14,066 bases of DNA. Source: Acidobacteriota bacterium. GTDB taxonomy: Bacteria; Acidobacteriota; UBA4820; DSQY01. The notes beneath the pieces are model-generated. The model did no database searches. It was not told where the DNA came from and was given only the letters and a program-made list of their open reading frames with translations. The position numbers and the translations under genes were made by a program. The stretch is from contig JBMFSH010000054.1 in NCBI GenBank assembly GCA_049967655.1, positions 1-14,066 on the forward strand, read 5' to 3'. Shown one piece after another: positions 1 through 14,066 of this stretch (positions are counted from its first letter, which is position 1; each line of letters begins with the position of its first letter).

Positions 1-1
1 C

Positions 2-2866
2 GACTATCAAAGTGCTTCTTGGGTCAACTACACCAATACGAATGCAGCTCCCGTGGGCGACCCCGCCTATACGACCGCAGTTGCGCCCCAGGATCTGGTG
101 GGGCGCAGCGCCAGTCAGGTGAACTGGGGCCTCGTCGTCTTTTGCGGTACCTCCACCAAAGAACTGGTCCAGGTCAACCCCAACGACAACGCCCAGAGCG
201 GCAACGTGGCCACCATCGAGGACTACCTTCAGCCGGTCGCCAACGGCGGCCTCAACCCTTACAACGGAACGCCCACGAGCATGGGGCTCGACAAAGCGAA
301 AGCTTCACTCACCTCCACCTACCAGAACGACACGGCGGCCTCCTGTGGCCGCACCTACGCCACGCTCCTCATCACCGACGGGGAGAGCAACACCTGCAAC
401 CCCGGAGGAGGCGAGTGGAGCAATGCGTGCAGCGATAAGACTCTTTCTGACATCGCCAAATACCCGCCGGGGAGGACCGACGAGCTTTACCTGGGAGGCT
501 TACCCGATAAGAGCAGCGGTTGCCAGAGTTCAGCCACGAGTCCCACGCACGTGCGAACCTTCGTGGTAGGGGTCAGCAGCGATATCATCTCCATTCCTGC
601 CGCCGTCTGCGAGCTCAACATGGACGCCTATTTCGGCCGAACGGACGCCTCTGCTTCCGACGGGGGTATGAACATCCAAGCCGATAGCCGGCTTCCGCAA
701 AACACTTCTGGGACGACAAATCTCACCAACTACAACCCCAGTTCGGGCAACTACGCCTACTTCGCCAACACGGCCGGCGAATTCGCCCAGGCCGTTGCCT
801 CCATCATCGCCGCCGCCGGTGCCGGGGACTACAGCACGGGCGCGCCGGTCGTGAGCAACAACTTGGTCAATTCGGGAAGCTCCGCCTACGTCAGCAGCGT
901 CACCTACCCGGCCATGCAGGGCCACCTCTACAGCTACGACGAGCAGGTGCTCACCCAGCCGACGCTGCTCTGGGACGCAGGAAAGGTGCTGGAGAACCGG
1001 GACCTCAATCCATCCAGCACCACCTACTCCCCCAGGACCATCCTGACCTGGGACCCCGCCAACCCCACGGCGAAACCCATCAATCTCGGCTCATACACAG
1101 ATTGGAAGAATGTCCCCTCCTCCATTCAAACGCTCCTGGGAAATGACCCTAACGCCCTCTTTTTCCTTCAGGGTTACACGGGGGCCGTGAAGGGCAGCGG
1201 GAATGGAAGTTATGTGGCGAGCGGGGTGAAGCGGTCGTGGTTACTGGGTCCCGTCCTGAATTCCACGGCGGCCATCATCGGGGCGCCTCAGGTCTGGACC
1301 GGCAAGAGCGGCCTGCCGAGCCACGTCTCCTTCGAGCAGACCTACGCGGGCAACCACCCCATGATCCTGGTGGGCTCCTCCGACGGCATGCTCCACTTCT
1401 TTGATACGGCCGACGGCTACGAGGTCTTCGCCCTTCTGCCGCCCGATCAGCTCGCCAATCAGGAGAAGCTCTATCAGAACTATCACGCGGGAAACAGCAC
1501 CGCCACCGGTGAGCCGACGTCACCGACGCAGCAGATCTACGGTGTGGCCAGCTCTCCCCGCTTCGCGGACGTCTATCTGTCGGACGGGAACTACCATACC
1601 GTCCTGCTCCTCACCGAGGGCAAGGGGGGCCGCTCCCTCACGGCGGTGGATATCACCGCTCCCTACCCGGGGAGAACCAACGTCACCGTGCCTTACGTGA
1701 CCGTGGTGAGCGGCGTGCCATCGCTGCAAACGCAGACGGGCGTCAACTACCCCGCGGACGCCAATTACAGCTCGAACTATCCCGTCTCGATCCTCTGGTA
1801 TAAGGATGGAGCGCTCCCCTCCACCTCTCCTTCGAGTTACGCCACTTTGGGGCAGACCTGGAGCGTCCCGGCCCTGGGCTTCACCAACGGCAGCGGGACC
1901 AATCCCCTCTTCTCCTGCATCTTGGGCGGCGGTTTCCAGCCGACGACCTCTTACAGCGACCCGCAGGCCCTCCAGCTCAACGTCCAGAGCGGCAGCCAGA
2001 TCGGAATCAAGGATCTTGGGAACAGCAGCTCGGGCCTCGTCCACAACCAGGCCTACGGCGCCGGTGTCCTCTACGACGCGACGGCCTCTTACAACCGTCC
2101 CAACGACCTGCTCAACCTGGGCGTGGTGGCGGACACCGACGGTAACGTCTGGAGCGTGAGCGCCTCCAACGGCACGTGGGGAGCCACCTCTCTCTTTTCG
2201 GTCGGTGCCTGCAACCCGATCTACTACACGCCCGCCGTGGGCTACTACGCGGGGTACGACGTCTACGCCTACGCCTCCGGAAACTTCTACGAGATTTCGC
2301 CCCAAGTGACCGGGGGCGCAAACACGAGTTGCAGCTACAGTGGCTCTTCCGTCTTCCAGGCGACGGTCTACATGACTCTGGTTGATCCCACGGGCAGTAA
2401 ATCCGTGGCGACGAAATCCTTCTCGGTTAGCTCCATCATTACCCAAAGCGTCTCCATTCCGTCGGGGGTGACCTTGCATCCCCAGATCACTGCGGACCCC
2501 ATGCTCTTCATCCCCTCCAACGCGGCTCCCTCCTCGACCATGCCCGTGAAGGCCTATTTCACCTTTTACGATCCCAACAGCGCCCTGGGGTGCGGAGGCG
2601 CCTCGTACTTAGTCAAGGTGAGTTTGGATTTCACCAAGGTCACCGCGGCAGGGGGAACCACGACCTTCGGTTCCGGGGCCTTTAACAACGCGGCCAGCTA
2701 CCTCGGCACCGGCGCCTCCTCCGGCATCGCCTTCAGCGGCGGCAAGATCATCGTGGCCAAGAGCGCCATCGGCACGGGCTCGGCGGCGCCGCAGGCCACC
2801 AACGAAAGCGCCCCGACGACCATCAACCAGGCTCCCGGCATCAACGCCTGGCAGGAGCTCCAGTAG
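2..2866 (+). CDS. pilY1: Type IV pilus-associated adhesin, PilY1/PilC family, with N-terminal vWA-like domain; 5' end lies outside the window
   Basis: The frame is open from base 2 (DYQSASWVNY...), so the GTG at 53 is probably not the real start. vWA-like segments: VNWGLVVF, GTPTSMGLDKA, LLITDGESN, VRTFVVGV. PilY1 C-terminal hallmarks: LLGPVLNST, ILVGSSDGMLHFFDTADGYEVFALLP, YGVASSPRFADV, TVLLLTEGKGGRSLTAVDIT, LGQTWSVP, ADTDGNVW, terminal AWQEL. Confidence 0.88.
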   Translation, partial: DYQSASWVNYTNTNAAPVGDPAYTTAVAPQDLVGRSASQVNWGLVVFCGTSTKELVQVNPNDNAQSGNVATIEDYLQPVANGGLNPYNGTPTSMGLDKAKASLTSTYQNDTAASCGRTYATLLITDGESNTCNPGGGEWSNACSDKTLSDIAKYPPGRTDELYLGGLPDKSSGCQSSATSPTHVRTFVVGVSSDIISIPAAVCELNMDAYFGRTDASASDGGMNIQADSRLPQNTSGTTNLTNYNPSSGNYAYFANTAGEFAQAVASIIAAAGAGDYSTGAPVVSNNLVNSGSSAYVSSVTYPAMQGHLYSYDEQVLTQPTLLWDAGKVLENRDLNPSSTTYSPRTILTWDPANPTAKPINLGSYTDWKNVPSSIQTLLGNDPNALFFLQGYTGAVKGSGNGSYVASGVKRSWLLGPVLNSTAAIIGAPQVWTGKSGLPSHVSFEQTYAGNHPMILVGSSDGMLHFFDTADGYEVFALLPPDQLANQEKLYQNYHAGNSTATGEPTSPTQQIYGVASSPRFADVYLSDGNYHTVLLLTEGKGGRSLTAVDITAPYPGRTNVTVPYVTVVSGVPSLQTQTGVNYPADANYSSNYPVSILWYKDGALPSTSPSSYATLGQTWSVPALGFTNGSGTNPLFSCILGGGFQPTTSYSDPQALQLNVQSGSQIGIKDLGNSSSGLVHNQAYGAGVLYDATASYNRPNDLLNLGVVADTDGNVWSVSASNGTWGATSLFSVGACNPIYYTPAVGYYAGYDVYAYASGNFYEISPQVTGGANTSCSYSGSSVFQATVYMTLVDPTGSKSVATKSFSVSSIITQSVSIPSGVTLHPQITADPMLFIPSNAAPSSTMPVKAYFTFYDPNSALGCGGASYLVKVSLDFTKVTAAGGTTTFGSGAFNNAASYLGTGASSGIAFSGGKIIVAKSAIGTGSAAPQATNESAPTTINQAPGINAWQELQ

Positions 2867-2887
2867 GAGGCCTCTCCAGAGGCCGAT
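2863..2887 (+). repeat. GTAG-family REP-like palindrome, copy 1; its TAG is the pilY1 stop codon
   Basis: GTAGGA-GGCCTCT-CC-AGAGGCC-GAT: a GTAG tetranucleotide followed by a 7-bp inverted repeat. A near-identical copy lies at 2959-2983. Confidence 0.7.
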
Positions 2888-2899
2888 CAGGCGGTTTCG

Positions 2900-2927
2900 A
2901 AAGGGGCGGGCTTCGGCCCGCCCCTTT
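2900..2927. terminator. Probable bidirectional intrinsic terminator between convergent genes
   Basis: Perfect 12-bp inverted repeat AAAGGGGCGGGC-TTCG-GCCCGCCCCTTT with a C(UUCG)G loop. The A/T tails are short (3 nt) on both sides. It lies between convergent stops at 2866 and 3026. Confidence 0.75.
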
Positions 2928-2958
2928 GGCTGAATGACGCGCCCAAGAGGCCGACGCC

Positions 2959-2983
2959 GTAGGAGGCCTCTCCAGCGGCCCAT
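2959..2983 (+). repeat. GTAG-family REP-like palindrome, copy 2 (slightly degenerate)
   Basis: GTAGGAGGCCTCTCCAGCGGCCCAT is 23/25 identical to 2863-2887, in the same orientation and 96 bp downstream. Confidence 0.65.
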
Positions 2984-3025
2984 GCGTGGGTGGGGGAGGC
3001 GAGACACGAGGGGCAAAGAGGCGCG

Positions 3026-3658
3026 TCAGCCCTTCTTGAAGAGCCCCGGGACCATCTTCCGAAGCGATCCTCTCTTGAGGGGCTCCGCCTCGATGCCGCA
3101 GGCGGCGCAGAGGTAGCGGGGAGAGCCGCCCTCGATGAGGGGCTGGTTCTTCACGCAGTCCCGGCAGAGGTAGTTCTTGCAACGGGGGCAGCGCCAGTCG
3201 GGTTCGCGGTCCCGGTGCTCGGCGCAGTGCTCCTCGTCACCGTGGCGCTGGCGGTGGAGCTCCACCAGTTCGGCGAAGAAGCCCATGAGGGCCGGGTAGG
3301 CCCGGACGGGCTGCCAGTCGCCGCCCTCCACCCGGGCGTAGTCGCCCTCGAAGAGCGTCTCAGTAAGGATCATCTCGCGCAGTTCGGCCAGCGTGTGCGG
3401 GCCCGCCGTCGCGGCGCCATCGGCCCTCTGGGAGCGGACCTCCCACCGAAAGTCGGCCGCGGGTCCCGTGAGCTCGACCCCCGGGGCCGCCTTCGGCGGC
3501 GGCGGTAATCCGAGCAGCTGGGCCCGGCCGTCGGGGTGCACCACGAGCTGGGCGCCGCACGAGGTGCAACGTCCGCGGGCGCCCTGGGCGGGCAACGCCC
3601 CCTCGGGCAAGGTGAAGCTCTTTCCGCAGGAGGGACACCGAAAGGTCACGTCAGCCAT
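3026..3658 (-). CDS. Zinc-ribbon (MJ0042-type) + GYF_2/DUF4339-like + B-box-like zinc finger protein, 210 aa
   Basis: The ATG at 3658 gives MADVTFRCPSCGKSFTLPEGALPAQGARGRCTSCG (CxxC...LP..G...CxxC). The middle WEV...GPHTLAELREMI...WQPV matches a GYF_2-like pattern. The C-terminal CAEH...CPRCKNYLCRDC is B-box-like, followed by CAACG. No TM segment or signal peptide is seen. Confidence 0.8.
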   Translation of the reverse strand: MADVTFRCPSCGKSFTLPEGALPAQGARGRCTSCGAQLVVHPDGRAQLLGLPPPPKAAPGVELTGPAADFRWEVRSQRADGAATAGPHTLAELREMILTETLFEGDYARVEGGDWQPVRAYPALMGFFAELVELHRQRHGDEEHCAEHRDREPDWRCPRCKNYLCRDCVKNQPLIEGGSPRYLCAACGIEAEPLKRGSLRKMVPGLFKKG

Positions 3659-3678
3659 GGTCCGAATCCAAGGTTGAG

Positions 3679-3707
3679 AGTATGGACCTAGGAAGGCGGC
3701 GAGGGAA
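3679..3707 (-). promoter_or_regulatory. Possible sigma70-type promoter for the zinc-ribbon gene
   Basis: The minus strand reads TTCCCT-N17-CATACT about 20 nt upstream of the ATG. The -10 is plausible and the -35 is poor. Confidence 0.25.
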
Positions 3708-3830
3708 GCGTGGGGGAACGCGGACTGCGAAACGCGAGAAGGCACTCATCGGGGTTCGGGAGGCGCACCCCGCGTTTTCCATTCCGTTGGTGTGAGCGCA
3801 GAGGGCCGCACTTTTCCCCTCCAAAACCCT

Positions 3831-3857
3831 CCTCGGTGCCTCTGTGTCTCTGTGGTG
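3831..3857. repeat. Short tandem octamer array (YCTCKGTG x3) just after the MFS stop codon
   Basis: CCTCGGTG CCTCTGTG TCTCTGTG GTG; the minus strand reads CACCACAGAGACACAGAGGCACCGAGG. Confidence 0.6.
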
Positions 3858-3867
3858 AGGCCTTCTT

Positions 3868-5172
3868 TCACTTCTCGTTCCCGAGCTCGGCGGCCATGGC
3901 GCGCTCGTAGGGGGCGAAGGCCCTGCCGTAGAGGAGGGCGTAGGTGCCCTGGAGGAGGGCGGCGAGGTAGAAGGGGGTGGCGAGCCAGCCGGCCCCGATG
4001 AGGGCGCCGGCGATGGCCGGGCCCACCGCCTGGGGCACCTGCATGGAGAGGGCGTTCAGGCTGGAGGCCAAGCCGCGGCGCTCGTCGCGCACGGAGGAGA
4101 TGACGAGGGCCTGGCGGGCGCCCACGGTACCGCGGTTGAGCGCCGAGCGGAGCATGTAGAGGAGCGAAGCCAGGACGTAGAACGGGCTGAGCGGTAGGAG
4201 GAGCAGGAGCAGGACGCCGCCCGCGCGGCCCCAGACCACCGTGCGGACCAGCCCGATGCGTTCGGTGAGCTTGCCGGCGGCCACCGCCGCCACGGCCGTG
4301 AGGGCGAAGGCGGCGGCGAGAACGGGGCCGATCTCCGCCGGGCCCACGCCGAAGCGCTTGGCGAACCAGTAGGCCATGAGGGGGCCCGTGAGGCCCACGG
4401 CCATGCCGTTGAAGGCGTTGAGGCTGACGAGCCGCCAGAGGAAGGAGTTCTCCCGCCTCTGCTGCTTCCTGGGCGGGGGCTTGGGCCGTTCCTGCCCTCG
4501 GCTTTGGTGGACCTCGGGCGTTCCCACGAGGAGGACGACATTGATGGCGTTGCCCAAAAGGACCAGCCCGAAGAGGGGGCGGAAACTCCCCGAGCGGCCC
4601 AGGGAGGTCACGAGGAAGGCGGGGATGCCGGCGCAGAGGGCGCCGATGGACATGCCGACGAAGCCGATGGCCGTGTTCAGGCTGTAGACCATGCCGCGCC
4701 GCTGGGGGACGATGGCCTCCGCCAGCCAGGCCTGCTCGGCGGGCATGAAGGGGCCGGCGGAGCCGTTGGCGCCCTTCCCAAAGCCCGCGAGGATGATGAC
4801 CGCCGACAGCCAGAAGGCGCTGGTGGTGCCCATGGCGATGAGGGCGCAGCAGCAGCACATGGCCTCGTAGGCGAGGAGGAAGGGCTTACGGCGGAGGCGG
4901 TCGCTCGTGATGCCGATGGTCAGGTTCAGGGCGGCCCCCACCAGCCCCCCTCCGCTCAGCACCAAGCCGATGGATACGCCGTGCCAGCCGAGGGCGTGCA
5001 GGTAGAGGGCCAGATCCACCACGAGGGCGCCCTGGCTGATGCTCCGCCAGAAGCGCGCCGAGAGCAGGCGCCGCGTCGCCGGCGCCAGGCTCCGCCAGAA
5101 GGCCAGCGCCCGCGCCGGAGAGGAGGGGGCCGTCCCGGTCTCGCCCTCGCCGTCGTTCGGGTGACCGGTCAC
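3868..5172 (-). CDS. Major facilitator superfamily (MFS) transporter; start uncertain (GTG 5172 preferred, frame open to 5277)
   Basis: About 12 hydrophobic segments in two halves separated by a hydrophilic loop (EVHQSRGQERPKPPPRKQQRRE). Motif A-like GITSDRLRRKP and GKLTERIGLVR. RRG motifs occur in both halves. Confidence 0.9.
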   Translation of the reverse strand: MTGHPNDGEGETGTAPSSPARALAFWRSLAPATRRLLSARFWRSISQGALVVDLALYLHALGWHGVSIGLVLSGGGLVGAALNLTIGITSDRLRRKPFLLAYEAMCCCCALIAMGTTSAFWLSAVIILAGFGKGANGSAGPFMPAEQAWLAEAIVPQRRGMVYSLNTAIGFVGMSIGALCAGIPAFLVTSLGRSGSFRPLFGLVLLGNAINVVLLVGTPEVHQSRGQERPKPPPRKQQRRENSFLWRLVSLNAFNGMAVGLTGPLMAYWFAKRFGVGPAEIGPVLAAAFALTAVAAVAAGKLTERIGLVRTVVWGRAGGVLLLLLLPLSPFYVLASLLYMLRSALNRGTVGARQALVISSVRDERRGLASSLNALSMQVPQAVGPAIAGALIGAGWLATPFYLAALLQGTYALLYGRAFAPYERAMAAELGNEK

Positions 5173-5233
5173 GGCCGAGCCCCGCGCGGAAGGGCCTTCG
5201 GGCCCGCTGACGGAGATGCGATCCGGGCGTTCA

Positions 5234-5956
5234 TCATCGGGGCGGCGGGGTTCCGGAGGCGCTGGGCGGGGGCGCACCTCCGGTCTCCACGAAGCCCGAG
5301 TTGCCGGGCTTGGGGCCGATGGCTCCGCCGCCGAGAAGGGCCTGGCCGCCGTCCCGGCGGCGCCCCTCCCCGCGCCCAGGCGCGGGCCGGCGAGGGCTCT
5401 CTTGGGTTTGAGGCTGGTTTTTCTGGAGGAGCGATTCGAAGGAGCTCCCCGAGTCCAGCTCCCGCCGGATGGCCATGGGGCCGTCTCCCGTGAGCCGTTC
5501 CAGGGTCATGACCTGGGCGAGGAGCCGGAGGCGCTCCTCGGCCGCCGGGGCCTGCACCGCATCGGCCGCCGCCGGGAGAGGTTGGAGGCCGTACCGGGCG
5601 CCGCCCTGGAAGAGGAGCGCCGCGAGGGAGCCGCCCACCTTGCGGAGAAAGGCCGGCCAGCCTCCCGCCGCCCTCTCTTCGGCCTCCAGCTCCTGGAGAG
5701 GCCTCCCCGTCTCGTGGCGAAGCTCGGCCGCGAGGGCGAACTCGACCAGCGAGGGGTGGAACTCGGCGAAGAAGGCGCGGGCATCCGTCTCCGGCACGAA
5801 CCACGCCCGGCGGACCGCCTCGAAGGAGGGAGCGAGCGGCTGCTGCACCGGCGCCGGAGCGGAAGGAGGAGGGGCGGGCGGGCTCGCTTGTGGCCAGGCC
5901 GGAACCGCCACCAGGAGGATCAGTCCCAGGGCCCAGGCGGACGTTCGGAGCGTCAT
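5234..5956 (-). CDS. Exported/periplasmic hypothetical protein, 240 aa
   Basis: ATG at 5956 with AAGGAG 8 nt upstream. Signal-peptide-like start MTLRTSAWALGLILLVAVPAWP, then a Pro/Ala-rich linker, a helical-looking core and a Gly/Pro-rich tail. It begins 19 nt after the permease stop on the same strand. Confidence 0.72.
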   Translation of the reverse strand: MTLRTSAWALGLILLVAVPAWPQASPPAPPPSAPAPVQQPLAPSFEAVRRAWFVPETDARAFFAEFHPSLVEFALAAELRHETGRPLQELEAEERAAGGWPAFLRKVGGSLAALLFQGGARYGLQPLPAAADAVQAPAAEERLRLLAQVMTLERLTGDGPMAIRRELDSGSSFESLLQKNQPQTQESPRRPAPGRGEGRRRDGGQALLGGGAIGPKPGNSGFVETGGAPPPSASGTPPPR

Positions 5957-5975
5957 CGCGTGTTCTCCTTGCACT

Positions 5976-7199
5976 TCAGCCCGCCGCGTGAAGGGCGACG
6001 GCCGGTTCGAGGCGGGCGGCCTTCATGGCGGGGTAGAGGCCGAAGAGGACGCCCATGGCCACGGAAAGGCCGGCGGCGTAAAGGGTGGCCGTCCACGGCC
6101 ACACTTCGGGCCACTTCATGAGGTGGCAGGTGAGCAGGGTCCCTCCTATCCCGACGGCCACGCCGAAGAGGCCTCCCAGCAGCGCCAGGGAGCCGGCCTC
6201 CAGGATGAACTGGGTGAGGATGTCGCGCTTGCGCCCCCCGAGGGCCCGGCGCAGTCCGATCTCGCGCGTGCGCTCCCTTATGGAGATGAGCATCACGGCG
6301 AAGATCCCCACGCCGCCCGTGAAGAGGGAGACCGCCGCCACGCTGCCCGTGAGGAGGGTGAAGGCCTGGGTGGTCTGGGTCTGGGAGTCGAGGAGCTGGG
6401 ATTGGGTCTGGAAGGTGAAGTCGTCGTCCTGGGCTTGCTTCAGGTGGTGGTCCCTCCGGAGGATCGGCGTGATCTCCTGCGGCAGGTCGTTCATGGCCTG
6501 GAGCGAGACGGCCTCGATTTGGATGCTCTGGAGATAGGTCATGTGGAAGATGCTCACCATGGCCGTGGAGAGGGGCACGTAGATGATGTCGTCCAGGTCG
6601 TTTCCGCTGAGGTCCTGGCCTCGGGGAGAGGCCACGCCGATGACCCGCACGAGGACCTTGTTGATCTCCAGCACCTTGCCCACGGGGTCCGCGCCGCCGA
6701 AGACGTTGGTGACCACCGTGGGGCCCACCACGGCGACGCGCTGGAAGGCGCGCTCGTCCATGGTCGTGAAGAGGCGGCCGCTGGCGGCGCTCATGCTGCA
6801 AATGTCGAAGAAGGAGGGCTCCGCTCCGGCGAGGGTGGTCTGGGTGCGGACCCCCTGGTAGCGGGCCACCACGCCTCCCTGCACGTAGCCAGAAGCGCGC
6901 GCGATGTCGGGCAGTTGCCGCAAGAGGTCCTGCTCGTCTCGCGTCGTGAGCGTGGTGAAGGTGGCCACCTGGCGCTGGCGGCCGCCGAAGGAGCGGAAGC
7001 GGCCCGCCTGGACCACGAGGAGGTTGGTGCCCATGCTGCGGACCTTGGCGACCACGTCCTGCTCCGCCGCCTGCCCCGCGCCCACCATGAGCACGACGGC
7101 GGCCACGCCGATGGCGATGCCGGCGCTGGAGAGCACCGTCCGCATCTTGTGGCCCAACAGGACCTCCCACGAGACCTTCAGGGTGCGGGCTAGGTTCAT
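5976..7199 (-). CDS. ABC transporter permease, MacB/FtsX family (no fused NBD), 407 aa
   Basis: HKMRTVLSSAGIAIGVAAVVLM (TM1), a large periplasmic domain with GRLFT...VAVVG, then GGVGIFAVMLISIRERTREIGLRRALG...ILTQFILEA and GLYPAMKAARLEP. ATG at 7199 has GAGG 7 nt upstream. Confidence 0.93.
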   Translation of the reverse strand: MNLARTLKVSWEVLLGHKMRTVLSSAGIAIGVAAVVLMVGAGQAAEQDVVAKVRSMGTNLLVVQAGRFRSFGGRQRQVATFTTLTTRDEQDLLRQLPDIARASGYVQGGVVARYQGVRTQTTLAGAEPSFFDICSMSAASGRLFTTMDERAFQRVAVVGPTVVTNVFGGADPVGKVLEINKVLVRVIGVASPRGQDLSGNDLDDIIYVPLSTAMVSIFHMTYLQSIQIEAVSLQAMNDLPQEITPILRRDHHLKQAQDDDFTFQTQSQLLDSQTQTTQAFTLLTGSVAAVSLFTGGVGIFAVMLISIRERTREIGLRRALGGRKRDILTQFILEAGSLALLGGLFGVAVGIGGTLLTCHLMKWPEVWPWTATLYAAGLSVAMGVLFGLYPAMKAARLEPAVALHAAG

Positions 7200-7209
7200 G
7201 GGAGGACCT

Positions 7210-7240
7210 CGGTGGAGAGTGGAGAGTGGAGGGTGGAGGG
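7210..7240. repeat. Heptamer tandem array (GRGTGGA x4), downstream arm of an inverted-repeat pair
   Basis: CGGTGGA GAGTGGA GAGTGGA GGGTGGA GGG; its unit is the reverse complement of the unit at 7640-7681. Confidence 0.9.
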
Positions 7241-7241
7241 G

Positions 7242-7261
7242 AAAGAAAACCGGCACGCCGG
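7242..7261 (-). terminator. Small terminator-like hairpin after the four-helix-bundle gene
   Basis: The minus strand reads CCGG-CGTG-CCGG followed by TTTTCTTT, 7 nt after the stop at 7269. The stem is short. Confidence 0.35.
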
Positions 7262-7268
7262 GAGAAAT

Positions 7269-7640
7269 TCAGACACCGTGGGCCTCCAGGTGGGAGCGGC
7301 GCAAGGCGCTCAATTGCTTGGCCATCAGTTCTGCCTCCGAGCGGAATGATGCGAGTGCGGCCTCATCTAGGTAGCCGAGGTCCACGGCCACATCCAGTTG
7401 GCAGAGAACTTCCATTAGCGAACCATAAGCCATTTCGAAGAAGTGAGCCTTGTCCTTGGGACCCGTTCGGGCGCTCCCTTCGGCGATGTTGGACACGATC
7501 GAGATGGACGCCCTTCTGAGCTGTTGGGCGAGGCCGTAGATCTCGTGAGGCGGAAAGCCCGAAGTGCGGTCGTAAACCAGCTTGACCAAGTGGCGTCCCC
7601 TGCTGTAAACCTCCAAACCTTCAAAAGTGAACTTCGTCAT
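7269..7640 (-). CDS. Four helix bundle protein (23S rRNA intervening-sequence protein / TIGR02436 family), 123 aa
   Basis: MTKFTFEGLEVY...FPPHEIYGLAQQLRRASISIVSNIAEGSAR...FFEMAYGSLMEVLCQLDVAVDLGYL matches the family signature (FP.EE.YGL..Q.RR...S...NIAEG...A.GS..E...QL....LGY). The extension to 7679 in the ORF track is just translated repeat. Confidence 0.93.
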   Translation of the reverse strand: MTKFTFEGLEVYSRGRHLVKLVYDRTSGFPPHEIYGLAQQLRRASISIVSNIAEGSARTGPKDKAHFFEMAYGSLMEVLCQLDVAVDLGYLDEAALASFRSEAELMAKQLSALRRSHLEAHGV

Positions 7641-7681
7641 CCACCCTCCACTCTCCACCCTCCACCCTCCACCCTCCACTA
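7640..7681. repeat. Heptamer tandem array (TCCACYC x6), upstream arm of an inverted-repeat pair
   Basis: TCCACCC TCCACTC TCCACCC TCCACCC TCCACCC TCCACTA fills the whole intergenic space, from the permease TAG to the A of the next ATG. Confidence 0.92.
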
Positions 7682-8965
7682 CCTAAGCGCTTCCACGGGG
7701 TCGAGCTTGGCGGCGCGGCGGGCGGGCTGGACGCCGAAGAGGAGGCCCACGCCGGTGGAGAAGAGGGCCGCGTAGGCGAAGGTCCTCCACGACACGGCCA
7801 TGGGCATCATGGGGAACAGCCGGGGGATCAGCAGGACGGGGACCAGGCCGAGCAGCACTCCCAGGATCATGCCGAAGAGGCTCACCAGCACAGACTCCGA
7901 GAGGAATTCCACGAGGATGTCACTCTGGCGGGCTCCGAGGGCCCGCTTGAGGCCGATCTCGGGGACGCGCTCGGAGAGCGAGAGGAGAAGGATGTTCATG
8001 AGCACCACGCCACCCACCAGGAGGGCCACGAGGGCGAGGGCCGCGCCGACGAGCTCGGTGGTTCTCGCCATGGACTGGACGCGCTGGGCGATGAAGTCGG
8101 GCGTGATGATGCGGAAGTCATCCTGCTCGGGCGGCACGATGCGGTGCCTCTGCCGAAGGAGCTGCGTGATCTGCTCCACGACGCTGGCGACCTTGTAGTC
8201 CGGCCGGACCTTGAGGCGGATGAAGCGGATGTAGTCCTGGTGGAAGACGCGGTTCATCCCCGTGGAAAGCGGGATCCAGATGCGGTCGTCCTGGTCGAAG
8301 CCCATCATGCTGGTGCCCTTGGTGGCCAGGAGGCCCTTGACGACGAAGGGGACGTTGTTGATGAAGAGGTGCTTGCCGATGGGGTCCTCGGCGCCGAAGA
8401 GGTTCGTCGCCACGGTCGTGCCCAGCACGGCCACGCGGGCCATGGAGCGTTCGTCGTCGCTGTCGATGGGCTCGCCCGCCTGGACGTACCAGTCGAAGGC
8501 CTCCGAGTAGTCCGGCGTGGAGCAGACGACGTGCGTCTGGGTGCCCACGCCGCCCGCCTTCACGTTGGCGTCGCCCGAGAAGATGCCGGGCGCCACCACC
8601 GCCTCGTAGCCGTACTGGGCCTGGATGGCCTGGGCGTCCTGGAGCTTGAGGGTGGTGCCGGCCTCGGCCCGTCCCCCCGCCCCGTGCAGTTGCCCGCCGC
8701 CGGCGAAGACCATGACGGAGCGGGGGCCGAAGAAGGCGGTGATCTGGTCGATGCGGTTCTGGACGCCCGCGCTGAGCCCCACGACGGCCGTCAGCAGCAT
8801 GATGCCCACCGCCGTGCCGATCATCATCAGGAAGGCCTTGGCCTTCTGGCTCCAGAGCGCGCCCGCGGCGTGGCGGGCAAGGCGCAGCATACGCGCGGGC
8901 CGAAGCCCTGCACTGTGGGATCGGCGGGCGGTGGTCACATCCAGGGCGATATCCGCGGCGCTCAT
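7679..8965 (-). CDS. ABC transporter permease, MacB/FtsX family (no fused NBD), 428 aa
   Basis: KAKAFLMMIGTAVGIMLLTAV (TM1), periplasmic domain with RVAVLGTTVATNLFG..DPIGK, then VGGVVLMNILLLSLSERVPEIGLKRALGA...ILVEFLSES and PARRAAKLDPVEALR. It starts 3 nt after the ATPase stop. Confidence 0.93.
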   Translation of the reverse strand: MSAADIALDVTTARRSHSAGLRPARMLRLARHAAGALWSQKAKAFLMMIGTAVGIMLLTAVVGLSAGVQNRIDQITAFFGPRSVMVFAGGGQLHGAGGRAEAGTTLKLQDAQAIQAQYGYEAVVAPGIFSGDANVKAGGVGTQTHVVCSTPDYSEAFDWYVQAGEPIDSDDERSMARVAVLGTTVATNLFGAEDPIGKHLFINNVPFVVKGLLATKGTSMMGFDQDDRIWIPLSTGMNRVFHQDYIRFIRLKVRPDYKVASVVEQITQLLRQRHRIVPPEQDDFRIITPDFIAQRVQSMARTTELVGAALALVALLVGGVVLMNILLLSLSERVPEIGLKRALGARQSDILVEFLSESVLVSLFGMILGVLLGLVPVLLIPRLFPMMPMAVSWRTFAYAALFSTGVGLLFGVQPARRAAKLDPVEALR

Positions 8966-8968
8966 GGC

Positions 8969-9646
8969 TCAGTTCCTGCGCTCGTCGCTCGCCACCGCCC
9001 CGTCCTTGAGGGTGATGACGCGCTGGGCGTGGGCGGCCACGTCGGGTTCGTGCGTGACCATGACGATGGTCCGGCCCTCGCGGTGGATGCGGTCGAAGAT
9101 TTCGAGGATCTCTCCGCTGGCCACCGAGTCGAGGTTACCCGTGGGCTCGTCGGCCAGGATGATGGAGGGCTCGTTGACCAGCGCCCTCGCGATGGCGACG
9201 CGCTGCTGCTGTCCGCCGGAGAGGGCGTTGGGCTTGAAGCTCATGCGCTCGGCCAGCCCCACGGACTGGAGCAGGGCCTTGGCCCGCTCCTTGGCGTCCG
9301 GCGGGTAGGGTTCGGTGTAGAGGAAGGGGAGCAGGACGTTCTGGAGGACGCTCACCCGGGGAAGCAGGTGGAAGAGCTGGAAGACGAAGCCGATGCGCTT
9401 GTTCCGGATGGCCGAGAGGCCGTTGTCGTCCAGGGTGGTGAGGTCCTGCCCCGCCAGCTTGTAGGAGCCGCCGGTGGGCCGGTCGAGGAGCCCCAGGATG
9501 TTCATGAGGGTGCTCTTGCCCGTGCCCGAGGGTCCCATGAGGGCCACGAACTCCCCCTCCTCCACGGTGAAGTTGATGCCGTGGAGGACCGGCGTCTCCA
9601 CGCCGCCGGTGAGGTAGGTTTTAACGATGTTGCTCAGTTCGATCAT
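8969..9646 (-). CDS. ABC transporter ATP-binding protein, MacB/LolD-like NBD, 225 aa
   Basis: Walker A GPSGTGKST, Q-loop IGFVFQ, signature LSGGQQQRVAIARAL, Walker B IILADEPTGNLD, H-switch VTH. ATG at 9646 has AAGGA upstream. Confidence 0.96.
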   Translation of the reverse strand: MIELSNIVKTYLTGGVETPVLHGINFTVEEGEFVALMGPSGTGKSTLMNILGLLDRPTGGSYKLAGQDLTTLDDNGLSAIRNKRIGFVFQLFHLLPRVSVLQNVLLPFLYTEPYPPDAKERAKALLQSVGLAERMSFKPNALSGGQQQRVAIARALVNEPSIILADEPTGNLDSVASGEILEIFDRIHREGRTIVMVTHEPDVAAHAQRVITLKDGAVASDERRN

Positions 9647-9689
9647 GGTACGTTCCTTACGCCTTGCGGATGATAGGAGCCGTTGGGAG

Positions 9690-9723
9690 GGAGGGAAACC
9701 ACTCCGTCGGAGCTCTTCCCTCC
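9690..9723. other. Intergenic imperfect stem-loop between adaptor and ATPase genes
   Basis: GGAGGGAA-acca-CTCC-gtc-GGAG-ctc-TTCCCTCC: 8-bp outer stem, internal loop and 4-bp inner stem, with no U-tract. Confidence 0.45.
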
Positions 9724-9728
9724 GCCGT

Positions 9729-10805
9729 TCACATCTGCGTTTCGGGGCCGCTCCGGCCGCCCGGCACGAAGACCTTGTCGCCCGCCGAGAGGCCCGCCTT
9801 GATCTGCACGTAGTCACCCGACTCGCGGCCGAGGGTGACGGGCCTCTGGACGAGCCCCTTGCCGTTTCCGCTCGGGATCATGACGAAACTCTTCCCGTTT
9901 TCTCGCTTGACGGCCCGCATGGGGATAGCGAGGACGCCGTTGAGGGTGTTGAGGGTGATGGTCACGTTGGCGGTCATGGTGGGCCGCAGCAGCCCCACGA
10001 AGGAGTCGCTGATGCCGATGATGACGTCGTAGTTGACCACGTTGTCCTGGATCACGGCCTGCGGGTGGATGGCCTCGACCTTCCCTCTGAAGGTCTTGTT
10101 CGGGTAGGCGTCCACGGTGAAGGAGGCCTCCTGGCCGACCTTGACGCCGCCGATGTCCACCTCGTCCACGTAGGCGTCCACCTCCAGGCGCGTGGGATCG
10201 AGGATGGTCACGAAGGTGGGCGCGTTGAAGGTGGCTGCGACCGTGGAGCCCTCCTGGGTGGCGACCGACTCCACGACGCCGTCGATGGGGGCCCTCACGA
10301 TGGCGTAGGAGTATTGGATCTTGGCGTAGTCCAGCTGGGCCTTCGCCTTGTTGACGTTGGCCACGGCCGAGTCGCGGTTCTGGCGGGCCACGTCCACGGA
10401 GTCCTGGGAGACGTAGCCCTTGGGCAGGAGGGCCACCTGCCGGTCGTAGTTGGCTTGGGCGTACACCTCGGCGGCCTTGGCCGCGGCGAGGCTCGCCTGG
10501 GCGCTGGCCACGTTGGCCTCCAGGTCCTTCTCCTCCAGGACGCCCAGGATCTCGCCCTTCTTGACCACGTCGCCGATCTGCACGTAGAGCTTTTTGAGCG
10601 TGCCGGAGACGCGGGGTCCCACGGGCACCTCGGCGCCGACGCGGGGCGTCACGGCGCCCGTAGCGATGACTTGGGCAGGCAGGTTCATCTCTTTCACGGG
10701 GACGAGGTTCCCCGGCGGGGTCGGGTTACCGTGCTTGCAGGCGCCCAACAGCGCCAGGCCCACGATCAGCGAAGGGGCCAGCAGGGATCGGCGAGAGAGG
10801 CTCAT
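9729..10805 (-). CDS. Periplasmic adaptor / membrane fusion protein (MacA-like), probable lipoprotein, 358 aa
   Basis: ATG at 10805 overlaps the TolC stop (ATGA). Lipobox-like LLGA-C; ATGAV.P...V.VG.RVSG.L..LYV..GD.VKKG; an alpha-hairpin; IVRAPIDGVV; VDEVDIGGVKVGQ..SFTVDAYP; LRPTMTANV; GLSAGDKV. Confidence 0.94.
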   Translation of the reverse strand: MSLSRRSLLAPSLIVGLALLGACKHGNPTPPGNLVPVKEMNLPAQVIATGAVTPRVGAEVPVGPRVSGTLKKLYVQIGDVVKKGEILGVLEEKDLEANVASAQASLAAAKAAEVYAQANYDRQVALLPKGYVSQDSVDVARQNRDSAVANVNKAKAQLDYAKIQYSYAIVRAPIDGVVESVATQEGSTVAATFNAPTFVTILDPTRLEVDAYVDEVDIGGVKVGQEASFTVDAYPNKTFRGKVEAIHPQAVIQDNVVNYDVIIGISDSFVGLLRPTMTANVTITLNTLNGVLAIPMRAVKRENGKSFVMIPSGNGKGLVQRPVTLGRESGDYVQIKAGLSAGDKVFVPGGRSGPETQM

Positions 10806-12238
10806 GGCTTGGTTTCTCCCATGGGATGAGGTCCGGAAGAGAGGGCGGGGATGTCCCCCGCGGTGACGGAGGTGGAGGGCAGCTCGGCGTCCTGGAGCAG
10901 GTCCACGCCGGTGGTCCGGTCCCAGGTCGCTTGCGCCGTCAGGACGGAGAGGCGGGCCGAAACGAGCTGATACTTCGCATTCTGGAGCGCCGTAGTGGCA
11001 TCCACCACGTTGGTCATGGAGCCCAGACCATTCTTGTACTGGCCCTCCGCCACGTTGGCGTTCTCCACGGCGCTCTTCACGAGGGATTCGGCGGCCTTCA
11101 CCGACTCGACGGCGGTCTCGAGCTGGGTCCGGGCGTCGTAGGCGCTCTTCTCGGAGGTGAGCTGGGTCTCCCGCAGGCTCATCTTGGAGCCCTCCCAGGA
11201 CTCCTTGGCCTGAACCACCTGCCAGGTGCGCGCAAAGCCCGTGAAGAGGGGGATGTGCACCGTCAGGCCCACGCTCCAATCCTCCAGGTTCGGCCACTGG
11301 CCGCTGTCGAAGCGGCCGTAGGAGCCGTCCACCGTGACGGTGGGTCTGTAGGCGACCTCGGCCTGCCTCAGGGCGAACCGGAAGGACTCGCTGTTCTCGA
11401 AGGCGGCCTTGATCTCGGGGAGGGTGGCCATGGCACGCTCCTTTCCGCTCTGCCAGTCGGGCAGACCGGGAAGCGGGGCGTTCTGATCCGAGCCCTGGAT
11501 CTCGAAGGAGGAGTCGGCCGGGAGGCCCATGAGGACGGCCAGGGCGGCTCGCCCGCTGGTGACCGCGCTCTTGGCCTGAATCACGCCGAGGGCGGCGTTG
11601 GCGTTGGCGGTGGCCGCCTGGAGCACGTCCGACCGGGGCACCAGGCCGTGATCGAACTGGGCCTGCGCCATGTCCAGGTGAAACTGGGTCTGCTTGGCCG
11701 TGTCCTCAGCCACCTGGAGGCTCCACTGGGCGCCCTCCAGGGTGTAGTAGGCGCTCTCCACGGAGAGGGCCAGGTCCTGGACGGTCGCCTTGAACTGGTA
11801 GTCGCTGGAGGCATAGTTCGCCTTGGCCCCTTCGACGGAGGCCTTTCGCTGGCCCGAATCCCAGAGCGTGTATTGAGTGGAAAGGGCGGCGCTGTCGCTC
11901 GTGGCAGTCGAGGATGTGCCCGGCAGCCTATACGTGCCGCTGGAAGGTTCCGTGTAGGAGCGGCTCAGGCTGCCCGAGAGGTTCAGCGTCGGCCAGTAGG
12001 CGCTCTGAGCGCTGCCGATGCGGGCCATGGCGGCCCGCCCCGAGTGCAATAAAGCGGCGGCGTTGGGGTTCCGCGCTACGGCCAGCCGGACGCACTCTTG
12101 CAGGCTTAGGGGATGATCGGGAAGGGGCGGAGGCGCCTCGCCCGGCGAGGCGACGGCCGTGCCGAGCCCCAGCATCAGAGCCGAGACGAGGACCGCTGCC
12201 CGGCGGACACGGGGAAGGGGTTTCGCGGGTCGGATCAC
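10802..12238 (-). CDS. TolC-family outer membrane efflux protein, 478 aa
   Basis: Signal peptide, LSLQECVRLAVARNP, duplicated OEP repeats (YWPTLNLSGS / YRPTVTVDGS; YTLWDSG / IPLFTGF; QFDHGLVPRSDVLQA / QYKNGLGSMTNVVDA). The GTG start overlaps the upstream stop (GTGA). Confidence 0.94.
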   Translation of the reverse strand: MIRPAKPLPRVRRAAVLVSALMLGLGTAVASPGEAPPPLPDHPLSLQECVRLAVARNPNAAALLHSGRAAMARIGSAQSAYWPTLNLSGSLSRSYTEPSSGTYRLPGTSSTATSDSAALSTQYTLWDSGQRKASVEGAKANYASSDYQFKATVQDLALSVESAYYTLEGAQWSLQVAEDTAKQTQFHLDMAQAQFDHGLVPRSDVLQAATANANAALGVIQAKSAVTSGRAALAVLMGLPADSSFEIQGSDQNAPLPGLPDWQSGKERAMATLPEIKAAFENSESFRFALRQAEVAYRPTVTVDGSYGRFDSGQWPNLEDWSVGLTVHIPLFTGFARTWQVVQAKESWEGSKMSLRETQLTSEKSAYDARTQLETAVESVKAAESLVKSAVENANVAEGQYKNGLGSMTNVVDATTALQNAKYQLVSARLSVLTAQATWDRTTGVDLLQDAELPSTSVTAGDIPALSSGPHPMGETKP

Positions 12239-12693
12239 TTGTGCTTCTCCTCGTTGGACAGGGGGGGGCGGTGGTCCCGTTCCTGGACTCGCCGCCGGAT
12301 GTGGTCAAAAAACTGGCGCTGTTGCTCGGGGGTCAGGAGACGTTTCTGCTCCAGCAGGTGACGGGTGAGCATTTGGACGATCTGGCCCTGCACGGCCACG
12401 ATCCTTGCCTGCTGGTCTGCGATCGCCTGGGGAGAGGGCTGATCGGAGGCGAGAAGGTCCAGGAGCTTGGCCCTCTGTGCCGCCAATTGGGATTCCATGG
12501 GCAGCAGTTGCCGCCGAAAGGCCCTGTAGTTCGCCTCGACTCGGGCCCGGACATCGGCCGGCAGGGCCATGTCCCTGCCGGGCCGAGGACGGCGCGCGTG
12601 GCCGTACCAGTGGACCGCGTAGGCCGTCAGGAACCCGGCGTTCAGGCAGAGGGAGGCGGCCAGGAGAATGCCCTTCCAGCTTCGGGGGATCAT
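12235..12693 (-). CDS. Periplasmic Spy/CpxP/CnrX-like (Metal_resist, LTxxQ-motif) protein, 152 aa
   Basis: N-terminal anchor with ASLCLN, a long amphipathic helical body and LLTPEQ near the C-terminus. ATGA overlap with the anti-sigma stop. Confidence 0.85.
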   Translation of the reverse strand: MIPRSWKGILLAASLCLNAGFLTAYAVHWYGHARRPRPGRDMALPADVRARVEANYRAFRRQLLPMESQLAAQRAKLLDLLASDQPSPQAIADQQARIVAVQGQIVQMLTRHLLEQKRLLTPEQQRQFFDHIRRRVQERDHRPPLSNEEKHK

Positions 12694-13139
12694 CGGGCCT
12701 CACCAGGGTTCGAAGCGGGGCTGACCACGCTGACGTAGGCGATTTCCACCGATCCGGAGGGCAGTCCGGAGAGGGCCTCCTGATAGGTGGAGGCCATCCC
12801 ACCGGGAGAGGGCGGGGAGGAAGGCGAGAACCAGTGTCCGCCCATCAAATAACCGAGAGACAGGGCACCCAGCACCAGGACCGCGGCCACGCCCCAGCGC
12901 CAGGCGAGATCCCAGGCGACCCGGCGGGCCGGCAGCGCGGCGAGCACCGAGGGGGCCAGATCCCGGAAGGGCGGCAGGGGCATCCCGCCGGCGAGTTGGG
13001 CCAAGAGTACGCCGTGTCTCCGATACTCCTCCGCACAGCCGGGGCACGAAAGGAGGTGATCCGAGAGGGCGGGATCGAGCGCCCCATCGACCGGGCCCCC
13101 GAGCGCGGAGATCCTCTTTCTTGCCGCTCTGCACCGCAT
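12690..13139 (-). CDS. Membrane-anchored anti-sigma factor with zf-HC2 (ZAS) motif, 149 aa
   Basis: MRC...HLLSCPGC (HxxxCxxC), a single TM (WGVAAVLVLGALSLGYLMG) and a short periplasmic tail. Strong SD GAGGAGG; directly downstream of the ECF sigma gene. Confidence 0.88.
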   Translation of the reverse strand: MRCRAARKRISALGGPVDGALDPALSDHLLSCPGCAEEYRRHGVLLAQLAGGMPLPPFRDLAPSVLAALPARRVAWDLAWRWGVAAVLVLGALSLGYLMGGHWFSPSSPPSPGGMASTYQEALSGLPSGSVEIAYVSVVSPASNPGEAR

Positions 13140-13159
13140 GGCTTCCTCCTCAGGTTGGC

Positions 13160-13187
13160 TTAACGGGCGGGATCGGAAAATCCTTCG
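13160..13187 (-). promoter_or_regulatory. Candidate ECF-dependent promoter inside the 3' end of the sigma gene
   Basis: The minus strand reads CGAAGGATTT-N12-CGTTAA. It has an ECF-like CGT -10 core and the same spacing as the motif at 13872-13899. Confidence 0.5.
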
Positions 13188-13759
13188 GCGCGCGGCGCCG
13201 GTCCCTCCGGGGAGAGCGCGGCGCCGAGGCCCTCGCGAAGCGCCGACCTGGCTCGCGAAAGCAGGGACTCCACGGCCTTGGGCGAGGTCTCCAGAAGGTC
13301 GGCCACCTCCCGGACGCTCAGCCCTTCCATGTGGAAGAGGACGACGGCCATGCGCTGGGCCGGGGGGAGCCGGGAGAGGGCGGAGGAGAGGGCCCGCCGC
13401 CGCTCCGCTGCGTGGAGTTCCGCCTCGGGGTTCTGCGAGCCCGCCGGCTCCAGATCGTCCATGAGGACCAGAGGACGGGCTTTGCGCCGCCGGTCGAGGC
13501 AGAGGTGGACGGTTAAGGTCCGCAGGAAGGCGGGCAGGGGCTTGTCCGGATGGTAGCGGGGCGCGGCGCCCCAGAGGCGGAGGAAGACCTCCTGGGCCAC
13601 GTCCTCCGCCTCGCTTCGATCGCCCAGGAACCGGTAGGCGATGGCCAGGACGGCGTGCTGATGGCGCCGGATCAGGGCCGCGAAGGCTTCGCGGCGGCCC
13701 CGGCCCGTATGGGCCATGAGCAGGGCATCGTCGGAGTCCGCCACTTCATCCGGGGCCAT
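13160..13759 (-). CDS. RNA polymerase sigma-70 factor, ECF subfamily, 199 aa
   Basis: Region 2: AFAALIRRHQ...AYRFLGDRSEAEDVAQEVFLRLW...CLDRRRK. Region 4: LSRLPPAQRMAVVLFHMEGLSVREVADLLETSPKAVESLLSRAR. ATG at 13759 has AGAGGA upstream. Confidence 0.95.
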   Translation of the reverse strand: MAPDEVADSDDALLMAHTGRGRREAFAALIRRHQHAVLAIAYRFLGDRSEAEDVAQEVFLRLWGAAPRYHPDKPLPAFLRTLTVHLCLDRRRKARPLVLMDDLEPAGSQNPEAELHAAERRRALSSALSRLPPAQRMAVVLFHMEGLSVREVADLLETSPKAVESLLSRARSALREGLGAALSPEGPAPRAEGFSDPAR

Positions 13760-13871
13760 GAGTCCTCTTTCCCCCGTCCCAGCCTCGCGCACGGAGCGCG
13801 GCTGTCTGCCGCGACCCTGGTGGTGCGATGCATCGCGTCCGGGCTGGTGGGCCAGCAGGAAAGCACCATTG

Positions 13872-13899
13872 TAAGCGTCTTTGCCGAGGAAGTCCTGCG
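13872..13899 (-). promoter_or_regulatory. Candidate promoter upstream of the ECF sigma gene
   Basis: The minus strand reads CGCAGGACTT-N12-CGCTTA, matching the internal motif. It overlaps a sigma70-like TACAAT at 13873-13868. Confidence 0.45.
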
Positions 13900-13902
13900 C
13901 CG

Positions 13903-13938
13903 CGCGGTCGGGCCTCGCGGTCGGGCCTCGCGGTCGGG
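13903..13938. repeat. 13-bp tandem repeat, ~2.8 copies
   Basis: CGCGGTCGGGCCT CGCGGTCGGGCCT CGCGGTCGGG; the copies are exact. Confidence 0.85.
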
Positions 13939-14017
13939 TGATCGCTCTCGTCACCGAGGGGCTGGCTTATGCCTCTCCAAAATCGACCGCCTTGCCGGCT
14001 CCGAACCACGGCTGGGT

Positions 14018-14065
14018 CTAGGCCGCGCCTTTGGCGCGGCGCTGGGGGCCTTCGCCGGGCGCGTC
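14018..14065 (-). CDS. Possible 3' end of an upstream gene (partial, ...DAPGEGPQRRAKGAA*)
   Basis: An open frame from the window edge with strongly G/C-ending codons ends in TAG at 14020-14018. It is too short to verify. Confidence 0.3.
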   Translation of the reverse strand, partial: DAPGEGPQRRAKGAA

Positions 14066-14066
14066 C

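Follow-up and report, generated by a model that had tools for sequence, protein, structure and literature searches.

The window analysed here is a stretch of 14,066 nucleotides from an Acidobacteriota genome (G000 in the genome comparisons; assembly GCA_049967655.1, contig JBMFSH010000054.1, positions 1–14,066), and features are read from its minus strand unless stated otherwise. A gene for a 123-aa four-helix-bundle protein (7269–7640), identified by profile search (PF05635, 106 bits; TIGR02436, 98 bits), stands between two genes for MacB-type ABC permeases: gene A upstream (7679–8965, 428 aa, matching MacB_PCD and FtsX) and gene B downstream (5976–7199, 407 aa, by profile search). The small gene is bordered by two inverted heptamer arrays, the 5' and 3' arms, and gene and arms are together referred to as the cassette. 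The whole forms part of a co-directional run of an ECF sigma factor, an unnamed gene, a PF13801 protein, an outer-membrane efflux protein, a membrane-fusion protein, an ABC ATPase, permease A, the cassette and permease B. As promoter-like and terminator-like sites were absent from 6900–8100, the cassette is probably read within the operon message; no Rfam family matched within the window. Elsewhere in the window, a 13-mer occurs three times ahead of the ECF sigma gene (13899–13938), possibly as operator sites, and a plus-strand open frame of 954 aa (2–2866) has no Pfam or NCBIfam match and resembles, judged by eye, the C-terminal region of a PilY1-type adhesin.

The PF05635 gene is the only gene between the arms, with no transposase or recombinase in the cassette, and its G+C content is about 0.58 compared with 0.67 for the genome. 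Its product is related to Xcc0516 (PDB 2gsc, the sole solved match, E 4.5e-19), a piece 96% identical to it occurs in an Acidobacteria record (L054), and no relative was found among 50,697 phage records. The dN/dS ratio was below 0.25 in seven of the eight measurable pairs of cassette proteins (1.2 in the remaining one; 5 of 13 pairs were saturated), suggesting that the protein is under purifying selection. The closest relative of the protein (58%), at locus L144 (G018:C197), is encoded between an ABC ATPase gene and a further gene for a MacB-type permease; the arms there are built of GTTGAGA, and the 3' end is duplicated. In-frame TAG codons were observed in three four-helix genes (G000 C64:2543–2860, L142 and L173), those of C64 and L142 falling at the same codon, directly before a conserved RRAA motif.

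Repeat search resolved the 5' arm (7640–7679) as 5.7 units of (GTGGAGG)n with one GAGTGGA variant, and the 3' arm (7211–7240) as 3.9 units of (CTCCACC/T)n with two CTCCACT variants. The TAG stop of gene A (7681–7679) runs into the 5' arm, which also provides a GGAGG ahead of the cassette gene, and a 28-nt spacer with a pyrimidine-rich end (7241–7268) separates the cassette stop from the 3' arm. A three-unit pattern had five matches in the window, all inside the arms, and none in 200 shuffles. On the minus strand the arms are predicted to form 27 contiguous base pairs (7666–7640 with 7211–7237, register i+j=14877), comprising 26 Watson–Crick pairs and one G-U (7659 with 7218) and closing a loop of 402 nt. 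The stem takes in the ribosome-binding site (RBS) of the enclosed gene and reaches as far as the A of the gene's AUG (7640). It is present in both the minimum free energy (MFE) and centroid folds of 7190–7700, with a z-score of −3.10 and no equally stable fold among 100 shuffles, and its pair probability was 0.78, 0.999 and 0.995 across three sequence contexts. Of 3000 pairs of genomic windows drawn at random with the spacing of the arms, none attained the arm–arm duplex energy of −67.6 kcal/mol (best −66.7), and the sense duplex is better than the antisense duplex (−61.5) at this locus. An in-register duplex of about 27 bp looping out the gene, as proposed in an earlier sequence-only reading, is thus exact in its pairing and is the dominant predicted fold. 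The z-score nevertheless shows that the arrays are real, not that RNA pairing has been selected, since any two inverted arrays of one heptamer will pair.

Two further points of that reading concern the register and the downstream end. The single variant unit of the 5' arm does meet its complement, but this is weak evidence, as the variant A lies opposite U in two registers (0 and −7), the 3' arm having two U-variant units. A Shine–Dalgarno (SD)-like GAGG (7207–7210) was correctly placed ahead of gene B, 7 nt before its ATG (7199). The SD and start of gene B are also predicted to pair with early coding sequence of the same gene (7196–7209 with 7159–7172, 14 bp, 86% complementary), and gene B may depend on an upstream unfolding event.

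A search of 41 genomes with gene B supplied its 20 best loci for a survey of the same junction in relatives. Eight of these orthologous junctions are empty, with an ATGA stop/start overlap, one has a short gap of 8 nt and 11 are filled (G000 and G002 included). Five junctions hold gene-less hairpins of 100–120 nt built from other repeat units, and four hold full cassettes with three different units, namely GTGGAGG in G000, a GATGAT-type unit in G001 and G003 and an octamer-like unit in G007. In G002, of the same genus as G000, only the 3' half of the cassette is left, the whole 5' arm being lost and the remnant frameshifted, and on a hot-spring contig the sequence departs from the alignment at the junction (loose end 7204) into yet another unit. 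On the gene B tree, filled junctions are intermixed with empty ones. The DNA identity of gene B within the genus is 88–95%, yet the cassette proteins of G000 and G001, two alleles within that one genus, share only 54% identity, their synonymous sites being saturated. Identity is 91% between the G002 remnant and G000 and 87% between the cassettes of G001 and G003, although the closest gene B sequences are those of G001 and G002; this conflict between cassette kinship and gene B kinship requires at least one joint replacement of the gene with both arms. Co-conversion of the flanks was not apparent: the 200 nt to either side gave no informative site that unites G001 and G003, in a comparison of low resolution. 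The five closest proteins among 29 genomes of the order are all encoded before a MacB-type permease gene, four of them at this junction and one at another ABC operon; a quick version of the four-helix tree, in which the junction group had a support of 83 (unstarred), was used as a hint only. The unit has thus been swapped, lost or half-deleted among relatives, and is an exchangeable cassette.

Arm matching was then compared across a family set of 114 full-length, non-redundant loci with 200-nt flanks, kept from 165 profile hits in the fetched loci. The set is biased to relatives of the query (best 80 of 312, plus family loci), kin are not independent, and arms were counted as matched at a stem score of at least 12, with G-U and A-C scored alike. 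Matched arms were found in 84 of the 114 loci compared with 17 of 600 cross-locus pairs, and they span many phyla and many units among gene-bearing cassettes. For the 34 low-GC loci, the upstream neighbour was open on the same strand only in 24, on the opposite strand only in none, on both in 7 and on neither in 3, while the corresponding values for the downstream neighbour were 23, 3, 5 and 2, with one flank too short. A wider co-direction count (82 of 84) has no control, and the high-GC loci are ambiguous, 29 of 50 being open on both strands upstream. Burial of the RBS is not general, as at least 6 of its 18 nt are paired in 35 of 83 loci and none in 38 (raw counts).

Within G000 itself there are six TIGR02436 matches, each with its own inverted unit (GTGGAGG at this locus and CGATTAAG, GAAGAGT, AGGAAGTG, GGGAGAC and AACAGGGA at the others), one match having an internal stop and one being truncated; the family also occurs in the Bacteroides thetaiotaomicron genome that served as a control. 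Arrays with a period of 7 or 8 number over 200 in G000 and are nearly all intergenic (crude gene calls, 2708 genes). In co-directional gaps, G-rich arrays lie nearer the upstream stop in 72 of 80 cases and C-rich arrays nearer the next start in 48 of 66. A paired stem is present in 25 of the 176 array-bearing gaps, the arrays of the other 151 having no partner, and paired arms are more frequent in co-directional gaps (23/120) than in divergent or convergent ones (2/56; p=0.005). The 23 co-directional paired gaps include 11 of a separate CACAGAG/CACCAAG-type class and 3 with four-helix genes that the gene caller had missed. Where a G-rich array is followed by a C-rich array in a co-directional gap (18 gaps), the three that hold a four-helix gene all have matching units; among the 15 gene-less ones, two share the same unit, two more reach a stem and 11 do neither, having different units and no stem. 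Arm matching goes with the gene.

Several gene-less gaps have chimeric or nested arms (G000 C15:60903–61046, C76:1698–1831, C17:1856–2055 and C25:33877–34163) that look like relics of repeated entry and loss at one and the same junction. The separate octamer class has the form ACCACAGAG(A/G)CACAGAG ... CTCTGTG(T/C)CTCTGTGGT; its outer ends are constant and both arms are usually present. It occurs in about a dozen gaps of G000 (for example C14:53062–57095, C9:63749–63871 and C17:36306–36481) and at 3831–3854 of the window, after an MFS gene, where only the left arm is clear.

If the arms had been maintained for pairing as RNA, G-U would be expected to exceed A-C mismatches on the transcribed strand, and such an excess was not found in the 84 family stems or in the paired gaps of G000. 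The stems contain 69 G-U and 82 A-C mismatches on the gene strand (p=0.33; per locus 26 vs 27, with 31 ties) and the paired gaps 26 of each, compared with 63 G-U and no A-C in a control of 51 tRNAs. The more stable stem is the sense one in 38 and the antisense one in 36 of the 84 loci, and is antisense at the G001 and G003 junctions. In TGGAGRG arrays, variants make up 15 of 51 units of the 5' type and 11 of 45 of the 3' type. The arms accordingly match yet carry no trace of which strand is folded, so that covariation between them, the check named in the sequence-only reading, holds as matching within loci and fails as an mRNA-strand wobble bias. Long redundant stems may tolerate any mismatch, and the missing bias therefore lowers the case for a role as RNA without excluding it. 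This symmetry is also a warning that a good predicted stem at this locus is not in itself evidence of RNA function. The G-rich polarity of the 5' arm (76 of 84) was rejected as strand evidence, since the reverse complement shows the same layout. A co-transcriptional 'window of translation' was not supported, as a transcript ending before the 3' arm leaves the RBS only partly open.

Cleavage of the stem, if it forms, is plausible by analogy. G000 encodes RNase III (rnc), and its 23S rRNA gene is flanked by a long processing stem. In the Coxiella intervening sequence (IVS), a 28-bp stem carries heptamer repeats before the start codon, and RNase III cuts at the first heptamer repeat, removing the SD, after which the freed RNA decays quickly (from the available part of PMC4990558). 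RNase III accommodates about 22 bp and leaves 5'-phosphate and 3'-OH ends, and its double cuts in Escherichia coli lie 16–1080 nt apart with a median spacing of 58 nt (PMC6212723, in part). It is the likeness to the Coxiella IVS, the rnc gene and the size of the stem that make cleavage plausible here. One RNA run yielded a single 255-nt contig, at a depth of 2.1, inside the cassette gene.

The account that we prefer, held tentatively and at slightly less than an even chance, is that the arms are the paired ends of an exchangeable cassette whose RNA stem is probably cut without rejoining, as in an IVS. On this account, the cassette sits with its matched array ends in the stop/start junction of the two permease genes, the arrays would pair in the operon mRNA and the 27-bp stem would bury the RBS of the cassette gene. 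RNase III would likely cut the stem with no rejoining, by analogy with the rRNA IVS, and the message would fall into two parts, one upstream and one that begins shortly ahead of gene B's own RBS. What the sequences show is the anatomy of the locus, the protein family, alleles of four kinds (empty, hairpin, full and truncated) and arms that match wherever the gene is intact; we infer that the stem forms in vivo, that it is cleaved and that the pairing serves the cassette rather than the host, whether the cassette RNA is thereby damped or released. Counting in its favour are a build like that of the RNase III-cut Coxiella IVS, a stem longer than the stretch that RNase III accommodates, the double cuts known from E. 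coli at spacings of up to 1080 nt, and the presence of rnc. The frequency of matched arms over cross-locus pairs, the position of low-GC cassettes downstream of same-strand genes, the concentration of paired arms in co-directional gaps, the lack of a promoter or terminator match, the junction alleles and the purifying selection on the protein argue in the same direction. Against it stand the missing mRNA-strand signature, the patchy burial of the RBS across the family and the short median spacing of double cuts in E. coli. Moreover, the cell has to produce a conserved protein at least sometimes, and this sets a limit to any silencing; ribosomes on the enclosed ORF could prevent a stem from forming across 402 nt.

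The main rival, a serious though less probable one, places the function at the level of DNA, with the arms acting as terminal repeats, whether as sites of binding or recombination or as hairpins of single-stranded DNA that drive replacement and precise loss, and with the RNA duplex as a by-product. The strand-symmetric mismatches suit it, as does the layout of G-rich outside and C-rich inside that is identical on both strands, in the manner of terminal inverted repeats; so do the seeming confinement of replacement to the intergenic unit, within the low resolution of the flank comparison, and the nested and chimeric arm relics in many gaps. ATGA is present at both ends of all five gene-less hairpins, a further point in its support, and is not present in the four full cassettes; such a repeat is, however, forced by keeping both stop and start. 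The unit also differs freely among related cassettes, unlike fixed transposase sites, the cassette contains no transposase or recombinase, and gaps between divergent or convergent genes seldom hold paired arms, all of which count against a DNA role.

That the arrays have no current function, having arrived matched, been kept alike by slippage or template switching and drifted since, appears improbable. The absence of wobble bias and the large number of array gaps with no partner speak for it, and among the 11 filled junction alleles the cognate arm is the best partner in only 5. Nevertheless, where the gene is present the arms stay matched in many phyla and with many different units, in G000 in all three of the two-array gaps with a gene as well as at this locus, while gene-less relics are mostly unmatched.

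It is less probable still that the stem serves the host by placing the stop of gene A beside the SD of gene B and so keeping the two translationally coupled. The arms do span the junction (median of about 4 nt from stop to stem in 82 loci and about 15 nt from stem to the next ATG in 74, from crude ORF calls), and the empty sites are coupled by their ATGA overlap; arms filling the junction, however, follow simply from insertion at a stop/start junction. At this locus the dominant register leaves 12 unpaired nt between the gene A stop and the stem, and only the +14 register abuts the stop, with a probability of 0.20 in the shortest context and 0.005 in the widest. Ribosomes are not known to pass across the foot of a stem of 27 bp. 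Only one of the four full cassettes (that of G000) and 7 of the 11 filled alleles have a clear SD, G002 has no 5' arm, and most gene-less two-array gaps are unmatched. The suggestion of the sequence-only reading that the stop is brought next to the SD, hiding the insertion from the operon, therefore fares poorly and is unlikely, and the pairing seems to matter to the cassette and not to the host. Least likely is rejoining of the flanks or of the released piece (mRNA splicing, or circular RNA as a mobility intermediate): it could draw on the kinship of the family with Avd, the RNA-binding partner of the reverse transcriptase (RT) of diversity-generating retroelements (PMC10053308, in part), but known IVSs are cut without ligation (bioRxiv 2024.02.27.582315, in part), the only RT matches in G000 are two contig-end pieces (C5:123275–123478 and C14:2–193), of which the C5 frame looks like that of a group II intron RT with the middle missing, and no joint skipping the cassette was found over 6400–7637 in the contigs of four sequencing runs, one of them of RNA, a weak test as the compared stretch ends short of the 5' arm.

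If the stem is indeed cut, as in the account that we prefer, processing of the IVS type would reach beyond rRNA into ordinary operons. A single cause would then underlie the fragmentation of rRNA, a large family of orphan proteins and the surplus of intergenic heptamer repeats that has long been noted. A broader and clearly more doubtful proposal is that PF05635 genes with matched 7–8-mer arms are widespread, undescribed mobile 'mRNA intervening sequences', in which a pentameric protein would recognise its own stem, RNase III would free the unit, and repeated entry and loss at operon junctions would give rise to the unexplained heptamer arrays of many bacterial genomes. The junction studied here makes the question testable in a laboratory strain, as its natural alleles range from empty through hairpin and three types of full cassette to half-deleted. 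No publication describing the gene-plus-arms unit outside rRNA was found in a search that barely covered subscription literature and supplements such as RNase III target tables; the allelic series at one junction and the negative tests of strand asymmetry are what the present analysis adds.

Among known systems, the IVS in helix 45 of the Coxiella burnetii 23S rRNA, which encodes an S23p protein, is the closest in build. According to the part of PMC4990558 available, it likewise has a PF05635 ORF in the loop of a stem of about 27–28 bp, a 5' arm with heptamer repeats directly ahead of the start codon, an SD within the stem region, a similar size (444 vs about 480 nt) and a patchy distribution among relatives. 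It differs in that the cassette occupies a protein-coding operon junction flanked by MacB-type permease genes, its cut is predicted, and its loop is translatable from an upstream stream of ribosomes; the Coxiella ORF is described as decaying, whereas the cassette protein appears to be under purifying selection. The phrase 'like an IVS in mRNA' thus fits the build, a PF05635 gene in the loop of a heptamer-built stem, and departs from the known case in its location. The 23S gene of G000 (on contig C1) is 3017 nt long and leaves no room for an insert of this kind.

The intergenic heptamers of Xanthomonas and Nostoc (PMC4692102) and of Beggiatoaceae (PMC4679880), as described in the available parts of these papers, are also G-rich after stops on the sense strand and C-rich before starts, with some inverted pairs, and lie mostly between co-directional genes. 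In contrast to the cassette, they are not tied in those parts to a four-helix-bundle gene and are discussed in terms of G-quadruplexes or protein binding; 'four helix' and 'intervening' do not occur in the accessible portion of PMC4679880. Avd and Xcc0516 share the fold family of the cassette protein, but there is no RT among the genes of the window and G000 has only the two contig-end pieces, and a repeat search of 6800–8100 returned no template/variable repeat pair. MITEs and REP-type elements have inverted ends, gene-less derivatives and intergenic hot spots, all of which recall the cassette, whose ends differ in being tandem 7–8-mers of variable unit and whose cargo gene is not a transposase. 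Its location sets the cassette apart from an rRNA IVS, and its gene content from both a retroelement accessory gene and an insertion sequence.
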